Source: Anaerolineales bacterium (GTDB taxonomy: Bacteria > Chloroflexota > Anaerolineae > Anaerolineales > Villigracilaceae). Taken from it: a DNA stretch of 64,000 nucleotides. The translations under genes and the position numbers were made by a program. The stretch covers positions 65,465 through 129,464 of the forward strand of contig JACKAV010000009.1 in NCBI GenBank assembly GCA_020634895.1, in the 5' to 3' direction. Each line of letters opens with the position of its first letter. The stretch's first letter is position 1. Under the pieces are notes generated by a model that saw nothing but the letters and a program-made list of their open reading frames with translations, was not told the origin of the DNA and did not search any database. Shown here piece after piece: positions 35,858 through 39,223 of the stretch.

Positions 35858-36688
35858 CTAACCGTACAATTCTTTCCTGAAAAATTCGGGCAGGGCAAAC
35901 GCCCCGCGATGAATTTCAGGGTTGAGATATTTGTTCTCGCCGGGCGGATACGGCGTTTTCAGTCCATCTTCCCAGGGGGTATCCGAGACGTACATAAAAC
36001 CGATGCCGCCGCCCGGGTAGGTCGGGATGTTGGCGTAGTAGTAAGCGGGATTCTTCGTCAGCGTTTTCGCGGATTGATAAATTTGCTTGATCAATTCCGT
36101 GTCGAAGAAAGGCTGCTCGCATTGAGTCGCTGCCGCGCCGCCGGGAGCAAGTGCATGCACTATGAGCTTGTAAAAGTCATCCGAGAAGAGACGCTCTGCC
36201 ATGCCAATGGGATCGGTCGTATCGGAGATGATAACGTCAAACGTGCCGGGGTTTTCCTCTAGGTAGCCGAAGGCGTCCCGAATGAGCAGCTTGGAGCGAG
36301 GATCAGACCACGGGTCCCCGAAGGAGGCGGTGAAGTATTCGCGGGAAAGGTCCACCACGCGCTGGTCCAATTCACAGACGGCAACCTCCTCCACCGAAGG
36401 GTATCGCAATACCTGCTGCAGTGAACCGCCGTCCCCGCCGCCGATGATCAGTACACGCTTTGGCACGCCGACGGCAAGCATGGGCATGTGGACGATCATT
36501 TCATGGTAGCCCATGTTGTCGCGTTCGGTGAGTTGGATGATGCCGTCGAGGATCATCGCGTTGCCGAAAAATTCGGTCTCGACCAATTGCAAATGCTGGA
36601 ATTCCGTCTGTTCATCAGCAAGGATTCTTTTAACGCGAATCCCCTTGCGGTAATACGGATGTAATTCTTCAGTGAACCATATGCTCAT
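35858..36688 (-). CDS. speE: Polyamine aminopropyltransferase (spermidine synthase type)
   Basis: LDGIIQ, YHEMIVH, IIGGGDGG, IISDTTDP. Confidence 0.92.
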   Translation of the reverse strand: MSIWFTEELHPYYRKGIRVKRILADEQTEFQHLQLVETEFFGNAMILDGIIQLTERDNMGYHEMIVHMPMLAVGVPKRVLIIGGGDGGSLQQVLRYPSVEEVAVCELDQRVVDLSREYFTASFGDPWSDPRSKLLIRDAFGYLEENPGTFDVIISDTTDPIGMAERLFSDDFYKLIVHALAPGGAAATQCEQPFFDTELIKQIYQSAKTLTKNPAYYYANIPTYPGGGIGFMYVSDTPWEDGLKTPYPPGENKYLNPEIHRGAFALPEFFRKELYG

Positions 36689-36736
36689 TCGAGTTCCTTG
36701 TGTAAAGTTTGTCGGGAGATGGGATGTTGCAGTAAA

Positions 36737-36759
36737 AAGGCGGTTGATAACCGCCTTTG
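36737..36759 (-). terminator. Terminator-like hairpin between the two speE homologues
   Basis: aaaggcggtt-gat-aaccgccttt; U-tract on the minus strand. Confidence 0.55.
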
Positions 36760-36769
36760 AAAGATAACA

Positions 36770-37708
36770 CTACTTCGGCAATTCCTGTGTACTGAAAACA
36801 GGTGGATGCTCGATCGTGTAAACGGTGGTTTCCTTTGCGATCGCGTCGCGGATGTGTTTGGGTGATTGCATTAATCCCAACAAGGTGGTGCCGTCGAACA
36901 TCTTAAATTTGCCGTTGGTTTTATCGGCAAGAAGTTCATCCACCGCTTCCGGATCGGGACGCAGGTTGATGGGAGAATCGCTCGCGAGAATAAAGCCCCA
37001 CGGATGCCCCAACATGGGCACATGGATGTGATACGAATGCACATACTTGAAAACCGCTTTGAGCGTGGAGACAAGACGAATGTGCATTTCCATCGACGGC
37101 GGTGAAACGGGACCCGCCTGCAGCAGAAAGTATCCGCCGGAACGAAGCGCTTTCTGCGCCTTGGCAAAATATTCCCTGGTGAATAACATGAACGACGGAC
37201 CATGTTCAATGGGATCGGTCAGGTCAGAAATGATGACATCCCATTCGGAGGGAGAATTGTCCAAATAAGCGACTGCATCCTGAATGACAAGCTCCACGCG
37301 CGGGTCGTCGAACGCGCCTTGATGCATTTCGGGCAAGTGTTCTATGCAGGCTTCCACGACTTCACGGTCGAGATCGACCATGACAACGCGTTCCATATTC
37401 TTCCACTTGAGCAGTTCGCGAATGGTTGCGCCTTCACCGCCGCCGAGGACAAGTCCGCGTTTGGGGTCGCCCTGATTGACACAGGCAGGCTGAACCAGAG
37501 ACTCATGATACAGAAAATCGTCGCCCGTGGATGACTGCCAGATACCGTCGAGAACCAGTCCCTTGCCGTATGTCCCGCAATCCACGATCCACAATTCCTG
37601 GAATTGAGTATGCGTGTGCAGAATGACCTTGTGAACTGCGTGATTCAAAACATCGTCGGGGGTCAAATAGTCAGAGATCCAATAAATTGGAGGTTTTGCT
37701 TCGTTCAT
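36770..37708 (-). CDS. speE: Second polyamine aminopropyltransferase (GGGEG type)
   Basis: LDGIWQ, YHESLVQP, VLGGGEGAT, IISDLTDP. Confidence 0.88.
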   Translation of the reverse strand: MNEAKPPIYWISDYLTPDDVLNHAVHKVILHTHTQFQELWIVDCGTYGKGLVLDGIWQSSTGDDFLYHESLVQPACVNQGDPKRGLVLGGGEGATIRELLKWKNMERVVMVDLDREVVEACIEHLPEMHQGAFDDPRVELVIQDAVAYLDNSPSEWDVIISDLTDPIEHGPSFMLFTREYFAKAQKALRSGGYFLLQAGPVSPPSMEMHIRLVSTLKAVFKYVHSYHIHVPMLGHPWGFILASDSPINLRPDPEAVDELLADKTNGKFKMFDGTTLLGLMQSPKHIRDAIAKETTVYTIEHPPVFSTQELPK

Positions 37709-37807
37709 ATTCATTCTCCTTGGTGAGGGTTTCTAATCACTCTTTTTCGTAATACGGAATCCATCACTGTCCATGGTGACCGTAAAATCCGTAAACTCAA
37801 TAATATC

Positions 37808-38191
37808 CTAAAACGCTATAGGCATTCTGGTTTCCACCGAGGCTTCCCGGTCGAGTTTTCGCATGGTGAAATCGTCCGCGCCGAATGCGTCCTTGATGCG
37901 CATCAGCAGAGGCATCATATCCTTTCCAATGGCGCAGGTGAAAAGGTCGATGGCGCAATAACCATATTCGGGCCAGGCGTGCAGGCTGGCATGTGATTCC
38001 GCAAGGAGCAGGAAACAGGTAAAACCATGCGGACTAAATTTATAAAAACCTTCATCCACAACCGTCAAGCCGCTTTCATGCACGGCTTGTGAGAACAACG
38101 AGTAGGCACGGTCGCTGTCCCTTAAAATCTCAGGGTTGCAGTCGGAGAGATCGAAAATATAATGTTCTCCCAATTTCAAACTAGCGTTCAT
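37808..38191 (-). CDS. speD: S-adenosylmethionine decarboxylase proenzyme (SpeH/SpeD type)
   Basis: LLAESHASLHAWPE self-cleavage motif, IDLFTC. Confidence 0.92.
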   Translation of the reverse strand: MNASLKLGEHYIFDLSDCNPEILRDSDRAYSLFSQAVHESGLTVVDEGFYKFSPHGFTCFLLLAESHASLHAWPEYGYCAIDLFTCAIGKDMMPLLMRIKDAFGADDFTMRKLDREASVETRMPIAF

Positions 38192-38206
38192 TCACACCTC
38201 CGGGTG

Positions 38207-38284
38207 TTAAAAAGTAAAGAACCCACCCAGGAACTCTTCCAACCCGATCCGCAGGATGTTTCCCTGCGTAACGGCTGAAACCAT
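38207..38284 (-). CDS. Candidate uORF MVSAVTQGNILRIGLEEFLGGFFTF in the speD leader
   Basis: ATG 38284 to TAA 38207; the stop overlaps the hairpin that sequesters the speD SD; no clear SD of its own. Confidence 0.3.
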   Translation of the reverse strand: MVSAVTQGNILRIGLEEFLGGFFTF

Positions 38285-38308
38285 TCTTGAGCAGACTCTG
38301 TGCGCGCA

Positions 38309-38336
38309 AATATACTACGGAGCATCGGAGTGTCAA
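38309..38336 (-). promoter_or_regulatory. sigma70-type promoter for speD
   Basis: TTGACA (38336-38331), 16 nt, TATATT (38314-38309). Confidence 0.6.
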
Positions 38337-38464
38337 TCTTTTTAGGTTATGAATATTATTTACTGAACGCCCTTACAAAAATCAAAATCATCATTGTAGA
38401 CTTCCTCCAGTCCACAATGATGATTCGGGGATTTACTTTTATACAGATTCAAAACGGGCGGATT

Positions 38465-39223
38465 TTAACGCACCACGCCTCGCACCTGACCTTCGACCTT
38501 ATCTGCCCAGGGATAGATCTCTGTGCCTTTGGCAGCTTCGCGAATGGCGGGATCATCCGAGTAATGCCCGCGTTGGTCTTGCGGAATCAACGGGGCAATG
38601 TGACGCATGATGTCGTGACCGATCTCATCCAACTGGTCGCGGAGTTTTTGTCCGCGCCCCTCGGCTTTGTACGGACCGAATGGTTTGCCGATGTTCACCT
38701 GTATCTTTGCGCGGCGTCCACGTTTGAGGCTGGGAAAAACCTCGGTCATGCCGACCAGCCCAACGGGAAGAAGAGGCGCGCCAGACCGCACCGCAAGGAA
38801 GGCTGTTCCGGGTCGTGCAGGTCGCAGGACAGCCGCCCAGTTCCCTCCCTCCGGAAAGATCGCCAGGATACCGCCTTGTTTAAGAATCCCCTCCCCGGCG
38901 CGGAGAGAATCCTTTGCGCCGGTGCCGCGATAAAGCGGATGATATCCCCACAGGAACGGCAGGACAAGCGAAGCCTTTGGTGCGTGAGGCGGCTGAGCGC
39001 CGCCCAGAAATTCGATCTGCCACGGAGCAGCCCGCACAAAACTGGCGGGGTCTACAAAACTGAAGTGATTCCCCACCATGATAAGCGGACCCGACTTGGG
39101 GAGGTTTTCTTCGCCGTTGATCTCAAGATCCGTGACAAGCCGATAGACGGGGTGAGACAGCCAATGCAGAAAACTGCGGACAAATCTGCGCCCCGGTGAT
39201 GTGAATTTTTGCTGTTCCATCAA
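38465..39223 (-). CDS. Lysophospholipid acyltransferase (PlsC family)
   Basis: NHFSFVD (HX4D), IFPEG, RPGTAFLA. Confidence 0.88.
   Translation of the reverse strand: MMEQQKFTSPGRRFVRSFLHWLSHPVYRLVTDLEINGEENLPKSGPLIMVGNHFSFVDPASFVRAAPWQIEFLGGAQPPHAPKASLVLPFLWGYHPLYRGTGAKDSLRAGEGILKQGGILAIFPEGGNWAAVLRPARPGTAFLAVRSGAPLLPVGLVGMTEVFPSLKRGRRAKIQVNIGKPFGPYKAEGRGQKLRDQLDEIGHDIMRHIAPLIPQDQRGHYSDDPAIREAAKGTEIYPWADKVEGQVRGVVR

Follow-up and report, generated by a model that had tools for sequence, protein, structure and literature searches.

The intergenic region in front of speD in the window (the whole 64,000-nucleotide stretch of DNA analyzed here) encodes on its minus strand a rod-shaped leader RNA of about 82 nt, which is conserved and covarying among relatives and forms a new RNA family, found in Villigracilaceae only and of the attenuator or riboswitch-candidate kind. 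Its occurrence only before speD–speE makes it plausible that the rod helps to regulate polyamine synthesis. Judging from the alignments, we give roughly even chances to the reading that the rod is a cis-acting leader acting as a conditional intrinsic terminator, that is, a transcription attenuator, which would gate speD–speE expression. Polyamine levels need tight control, and to our knowledge a single bacterial RNA, a rare SAM-I variant, is validated as a polyamine sensor, the ldcC motif still being an orphan; the rod adds an independent, covariation-backed leader RNA before speD–speE. Villigracilaceae are abundant filamentous Chloroflexota of activated sludge.

The leader corresponds to the intergenic region 38336–38192 (minus strand, as are all features of the window described here) and lies 5′ of a three-gene operon consisting of speD and two speE-type genes. 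The speD gene (37808–38191) encodes a pyruvoyl-type S-adenosylmethionine decarboxylase of 127 aa (PF02675 AdoMet_dc, E = 5.4e-32), and it is followed by two tandem genes of the spermidine-synthase family (35858–37714; PF01564, PF17284), located at 36770–37714 and 35858–36688 and encoding proteins of 314 and 276 aa. These two paralogues are about 32% identical to each other and may differ in their aminopropyl acceptors; directly after speD, relatives carry a speE gene of one type or the other, and the source genome carries both. On the other side of the leader, 3′ of an acyltransferase gene, an 18-bp hairpin (GAATCATCATTGTGGAC...GTCTACAATGATGATT followed by TGATTTTTGT; 38385–38426) is likely the terminator of that upstream gene, and its ATGATGATTTTGA arm is found at the same location in relatives.

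Transcription of the leader is predicted to start from a sigma-70-type promoter, TTGACA-16-TATATT (38309–38336), which matches 11 of 12 positions and was the top-scoring site in a scan of the region; its hexamers lie at 38336–38331 and 38314–38309, separated by a 16-nt spacer. The earlier note had described this promoter, and comparison bears it out: TTGAC(A/G/T)-16-TATAA(A/C) is present in all 93 of the relatives' leaders, and in these the first paired base of the rod follows the −10 hexamer by 7–12 nt. From this conservation and this spacing we infer that transcription almost certainly begins 0–5 nt 5′ of the rod. The predicted start is thus upstream of the rod in 93 of 93 leaders and not, as the earlier note had allowed for, downstream of it. 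Because the rod lies within a few nucleotides of the predicted start, a classical antiterminator would have no room upstream. The −35 hexamer adjoins a putative UP element, an A/T-rich stretch (TAAATAATATTCA...AAAAAGA; 38337–38362), whose AATATTCA and AAAAGA blocks are kept in relatives, including two genomes without the rod; this block could be either a UP-element-like sequence or the operator of a transcription factor.

The minimum free energy (MFE) fold of the leader is a rod of three helices (38218–38299), and the same rod is recovered by the consensus fold and by a covariance model. Helix P1 pairs 38299–38283 with 38234–38218, P2 pairs 38280–38273 with 38244–38237, and P3 (CGCAGGG/UCCUGCG) pairs 38268–38262 with 38256–38250 and is closed by the loop AAACA (38261–38257), while an internal loop, GUUA/GAUCG, separates P2 from P3. 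This fold, with the U-rich tract that follows it, is identical to the one drawn in the earlier note. The MFE of 38305–38180 was −45.3 kcal/mol (z = −2.63), and one of 200 dinucleotide shuffles was equally stable; the single-sequence fold is only modestly above chance, and it is the relatives that give it real support. Many other genomes of the genus, as defined by GTDB, have speD orthologues of 77–90% identity, whose upstream regions can be aligned with the leader. A MAFFT/RNAalifold consensus of 13 leaders gave the same rod, in which 12 pairs change on both sides. In the covariance model (R1; 97 positions, 31 pairs and 0 branch points), 96% of the cells pair across 58 sequences and compensatory changes are found in 17 of the 31 pairs (138 cells), whereas sliding the partners against each other leaves 33–56% of the cells paired and no shuffle matches the real values. 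The covariation that the earlier note proposed to look for in an alignment of speD leaders is thus present, and the leader is indeed a conserved structured one; the conservation of an upstream open reading frame (uORF), for which the same alignment was to be read, is not, as discussed below. The model scores about 95 bits on its own strand and about 25 bits on the reverse strand, the fold being strand-specific because of its G.U pairs.

Conservation within the upper rod is uneven. The segment GUUAC is invariant and faces GGAUCG across a 3×3 loop with the possible pairs U.U, U-A and A.G, the middle one of which survives one-sided changes. P3 covaries, from G-C to A-U and to U-A, and its loop conforms to A-N-ACA. 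As far as the alignments tell, the upper rod is more conserved than a terminator requires. In two leaders, L069 and L070 (genomes G077 and G078), about 45 nt that form an additional hairpin (ACCCAAACA…UGUUUGGGU) are inserted just 5′ of the GUUAC loop, which makes the rod branched and leaves all of its conserved blocks in place.

The most constrained part of the leader is the base of the stem together with the tail, AGAGUCU/GGGUUCU-UU-NNN-UUUU. The 5′ base of P1, AGAGUCU (38293–38299), is invariant in 57–58 of the 58 sequences. Invariant, too, is GGGUUCUUU (38216–38224), in which the 3′ base of P1 passes into the tail and TTCTTT occupies 38221–38216. The basal pairs of P1, A-U, G-C, A-U, G.U, U.G, C-G and U.G, are invariant, with the three wobbles kept as GU in 57, UG in 58 and UG in 57 of the 58 sequences, whereas the pairs next to them exchange freely (GC 25, GU 17 and AU 16 at one position; CG 37, UA 14 and UG 7 at another). 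Because the wobbles are invariant beside freely exchanging pairs, the wobble, or the weakness that it confers, appears to be itself under selection. The five basal pairs contribute −3.9 of the −38 kcal/mol total. In the tail, GGGTTCTTT is found in 92 of 93 aligned sequences and TTCTTT in 95 of 96 leaders, including the two AGGTTCTTT variants; U7–U9 are invariant, three variable positions follow, and UUUU is present in 91–93 of 93. Elsewhere in the genome, GGGTTCTTT-NNN-TTTT and GTTACGCAGGG occur by chance, within unrelated sequence.

This anatomy is that of an intrinsic terminator, a hairpin (ending at 38218) followed by a U-rich tract of the form UU-NNN-UUUU(U), and more specifically that of the NusG-dependent terminators of B. 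subtilis, which have weak terminal A-U or G-U pairs and a non-template TTNTTT that spans −11 to −6 and begins, with its first Ts, inside the stem base, and which release the transcript 7–9 nt past the stem and carry interruptions in the distal U-tract (PMC8060035, PMC11602163). The rod base has such weak terminal pairs, and TTCTTT at 38221–38216 fits the NusG pause motif TTNTTT; placing it at −11 to −6 puts the 3′ end at about 38211, 7 nt past the last stem pair and within the invariant U run. Pausing and termination are accordingly predicted within the interrupted U-tract UUACUUUUU (38209–38217), at about 38211–38209, 7–9 nt past the stem. A simple terminator scanner passed over the rod on account of its internal loops and of a stem that exceeds 20 pairs. 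A survey of the genome returned about 1000 sites with a hairpin and a T-run, mostly with GC-rich bases; the rod base, with two non-GC pairs among its three basal pairs, is weaker than most of these terminator-like sites though not extreme, and the survey is only mildly informative on how unusual it is.

NusG-dependent pausing has been characterized in Bacillus and Mycobacterium, and we know of no description of it in Chloroflexota. The NusG of the source genome (L156:1321-2013) reads SWYVVRNTPGV and so has the pause-type residues Y77, N81 and T82 of the B. subtilis protein, at which positions E. coli NusG has H, S and V; its best PDB match is the NusG of a B. subtilis paused complex (8ehq_G, E = 5e-64). 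The protein (L156:1321-2016, contig C1) also has an N-terminal extension of about 60 residues, acidic and rich in Pro, Glu and Ser, before its NGN domain; this extension resembles that of mycobacterial NusG, and the alignment with 8eos_G starts within it.

Searches with R1 gave a single strong match per genome in 57 of 95 genomes of the genus. In a sample of the order (401 genomes, 123 genera) matches were confined to five genera of Villigracilaceae, and in a sample of the phylum (401 genomes, 217 genera) no match was found outside this family; beyond Villigracilaceae, both samples yielded merely sub-threshold matches to short hairpins. No further copy of the rod was found in the source genome by covariance-model search. 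Wherever the flanking DNA sufficed (57 matches), speD and next a speE gene follow the rod. Of 92 unique leaders, 86 have the end of the R1 model 13–22 nt before the speD start, and insertions extend this distance to 93–175 nt in the other six. Conversely, among GTDB species representatives the rod is present at 78 of the 80 best speD loci, and the SpeD proteins of the five genera are 71–90% identical. The two rod-less speD loci have different leaders, which still consist of a hairpin and then a U-run. One leader (L068) has kept the P1 base and the tail and has replaced P2 and P3, so that the upper rod may be dispensable.

Replacement leaders were seen in two forms. In L014 and L079 the promoter and the UP-like block are the same, and the rod has given way to a perfect 10-bp hairpin followed by UAUAUUUU; in L137, again with the same promoter and UP-like block, a longer leader carries GCCACAG…CUGUGGC and AGAAAUUUUG in place of the rod. 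The architecture of a hairpin and a U-run is retained in these leaders without conserved sequence.

The rod does not belong to a family in Rfam. A cmscan of Rfam 15 over 37500–39000 at E ≤ 10, and over the loci of seven relatives at E ≤ 1, returned noise only, namely miRNA-like and psRNA14 matches far under the gathering scores, with no SAM, ldcC, speF or potC family among them; a weak mir-3051 match in this noise is due to the hairpin at 38385–38426. The view of the earlier note that the leader is not a SAM-I riboswitch, reached by eye, agrees with the lack of any SAM-family match at these thresholds and with the 0 branch points of the model.

How might such an element gate speD–speE? In the mechanism that we favor at even confidence, the strong conserved promoter would initiate 0–5 nt 5′ of the rod, and the upper rod (P3, P2 and upper P1) would fold before the base. 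RNA polymerase would then reach the invariant TTCTTT-NNN-TTTT tail and probably pause there with the aid of NusG, and closure of the last five to seven marginal pairs, the last five of which are worth about 4 kcal/mol, would decide the outcome: with the base closed, the transcript would be released 14–16 nt before the speD start codon, and with the base open, the polymerase would continue into speD–speE. What the comparison shows is the structure, its conservation, its exclusive tie to speD and its terminator-like anatomy; pausing, termination and any signal are our inference. A signal would most likely act through the conserved upper rod and the invariant wobble pairs; it could be a metabolite of the polyamine pathway or a protein, and the expected logic would be negative feedback on polyamine synthesis. 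A search of 85 unique aligned sequences for conserved antiterminator or pseudoknot helices revealed none that was convincing, only wobble-rich pairings of 4–5 bp. These pairings, GGAUC/GGUUC and AGGGA/UUCUU among them, were rejected; they would require melting of P2, and they cannot show covariation because both partner segments are invariant. At −38 to −45 kcal/mol, the complete rod is so stable that read-through, or regulation at all, is in question. If the rod is regulated, it would be a terminator that is tunable directly, without an antiterminator, and Chloroflexota would join the groups with NusG-assisted termination; otherwise it is a clean new RNA family for Rfam. The design is unusual, the whole leader being one hairpin whose wobble-rich, marginal base is fused to a NusG-type pause motif.

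The rod can be set beside several known systems. With the NusG-dependent terminators of B. subtilis (PMC8060035, PMC11602163) it shares TTNTTT with the first Ts in the stem base, the 7–9-nt release window in the U run, the interrupted U-tract and the Y/N/T residues of NusG, but those terminators have a short generic stem, whereas the rod is about 82 nt long, covaries, has conserved loops and serves one operon. NusG-dependent pausing is also known from riboswitch leaders (PMC11602163). The HMP-PP riboswitch of thiS, an ON switch for a precursor (PMC6478431), has the same terminator look, conserved loop nucleotides, link to one pathway and use of the terminator hairpin itself as the sensor; the rod is, however, much longer and has no sequence or Rfam similarity to it, and the alternative P1/pseudoknot fold of thiS has no counterpart that we could find in the rod. 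The spermidine riboswitch, a variant of SAM-I with a four-way junction that is known from 13 examples in Bacillales (Salvail et al. 2023, PMC10853860), likewise lies 5′ of speD/speE-type genes, is terminator-based and has the OFF logic expected here. The rod does not share its fold, being unbranched and without a match to SAM-I (RF00162) even at E ≤ 10. The ldcC motif (RF02440) is an orphan bulged hairpin of Firmicutes and Spirochaetes found 5′ of polyamine-related decarboxylases (Weinberg et al. 2017, PMC5737381): both are cis-regulatory hairpins in the 5′ UTRs of such decarboxylases, including SAM decarboxylase, but they differ in size and in conserved nucleotides, and ldcC gave no match over 37500–39000 at E ≤ 10 or in the seven relatives at E ≤ 1.

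A more specific version of the attenuator, which we regard as possible but clearly less probable than the general one, makes the rod a new riboswitch class that binds spermidine, decarboxylated SAM (dcSAM), MTA or SAM at the UUA/GAU loop, the P3 loop and/or the tandem wobble base, with ligand-induced termination as an OFF switch. The conservation of GUUAC, of the A-N-ACA loop and of the wobbles, far beyond what a plain terminator needs, speaks for it, as does the nature of the element, a conserved, covarying cis-leader with a consistent gene link that is exclusive to speD–speE; there are also precedents, both for an aptamer embedded in a terminator, that of HMP-PP having been spotted through its 'peculiar terminator' features (PMC6478431), and for spermidine-induced termination 5′ of speD/speE (PMC10853860). 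The choice of a polyamine or SAM as the ligand, made already in the earlier note, is pure conjecture. The rod would, a shade more doubtfully still, be a second natural class of polyamine riboswitch, unrelated to the SAM-I variant, whose terminator hairpin is itself the aptamer and which works without an antiterminator: the invariant G.U/U.G base, the UUA/GAU loop or both would be the docking site for spermidine, a polycation like it, or dcSAM, and docking during a NusG-stabilized pause would tip the marginal pairs of about 4 kcal/mol. Termination, leaky without the ligand, would thereby become efficient, and speD–speE would come under a closed feedback loop. Against a riboswitch, the conserved nucleotides lie mostly in a near-continuous helix without a pocket at a junction of several helices, the search of the 85 unique aligned sequences gave no alternative, ligand-free fold, L068 lacks P2 and P3 yet keeps the base and tail, and two genomes have exchanged the whole rod for simple hairpins. 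These replacements, hairpins with a U-run in L079/L014 and L137 alike, can also be read in favor of a constitutive element that senses nothing and either shields the mRNA from 5′-end-dependent RNases or, as a fixed leaky terminator or an RNase III site, keeps speD–speE expression at a low level. Stabilizing 5′ hairpins classically sit at the 5′ end of the transcript, long near-continuous duplexes resemble RNase III substrates as the rod does, the rod is 0–5 nt from the predicted start, and no antiterminator was found; such an element leaves unexplained, however, why three wobbles are invariant beside covarying pairs and why TTCTTT, GUUAC and the P3 loop are invariant across five genera whose SpeD proteins are 71–90% identical. 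We rate this explanation as unlikely, about on a par with a second polyamine riboswitch class. That the rod is a stand-alone sRNA gene with targets in trans, speD being reached through read-through only, is far less probable again. Bacterial sRNA genes canonically consist of a promoter, a hairpin and a U-tail, and all three are present here, the hairpin measuring about 90 nt. But in 86 of the 92 unique leaders only 13–22 nt separate the rod from the speD start, speD lacks a separate promoter, the rod occurs only in genomes with speD, and there is no obvious single-stranded seed because the RNA is almost fully paired.

Control through translation, which was central to the earlier note, fares no better than the sRNA or only slightly so. 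The 25-codon uORF (MVSAVTQGNILRIGLEEFLGGFFTF and a stop codon; 38207–38284) exists in the source genome, and its stop codon abuts the Shine-Dalgarno (SD) hairpin, so that translation of the uORF, or of an arrest peptide, was envisaged to remodel the rod and the hairpin. Systems of this type in the polyamine field, the MAGDIS uORF of eukaryotic AdoMetDC and bacterial arrest peptides such as SpeFL, need a conserved peptide-coding uORF, and the polyamine pathway is the only thing that the speD leader shares with them: among the 92 unique leaders no conserved uORF in a fixed frame, as in leader- or arrest-peptide attenuation, was found. The uORF ATG is present in only about seven of the 92, opens ORFs of 6, 25, 39 or 44 codons in differing frames and is not preceded by an SD sequence, and an ATG uORF is missing altogether from ten leaders; a 'MKK...' ORF of the long-loop subtype (ATGAAAAAG) has lost its ATG in other genera (GTAAAAAG, ATAAAAAG). 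We take the 25-codon uORF for a chance ORF outside the element; comparison effectively refutes control by uORF translation, which we hold to be very improbable, and the speD leader is a cautionary case of a chance uORF within a structured leader. Slightly less improbable than the sRNA gene, though still improbable, is occlusion of the speD SD by the small hairpin as the main mechanism, possibly modulated by the rod. The hairpin, ACACC-CGGA-GGUGU (38194–38207) over the SD GGAGGUG (38201–38195), is present here as the earlier note had it, nearly all leaders have a pyrimidine-rich stretch before the SD, and a few changes preserve pairing (e.g. AUACC/GGUAU, ACGCC/GGUGU), but it does not hold up as the core of the mechanism: it is weak and only partly conserved, with 5 bp in about 28 of the 92 leaders and 3 bp in most, where its dG is about −1 to −6 kcal/mol, and it is absent from the RNAalifold consensus of 13 leaders. 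Moreover, the rod can be separated from the SD, by 93–175 nt in the six genomes with insertions between the rod tail and the SD; the tolerance of these insertions fits a transcriptional mechanism and not one that depends on proximity to the SD. The insertions (L033, L043/L154, L102/L145, L109 and L129) sit precisely at the junction of the U-tail (…TTTTTA) with the AACCC-GGAGG segment. Several of them have inverted-repeat ends in common (CGCTGGTTATCG…CGATAC), a hint of a small mobile repeat for which the spot between tail and SD is either a target or a tolerated site.
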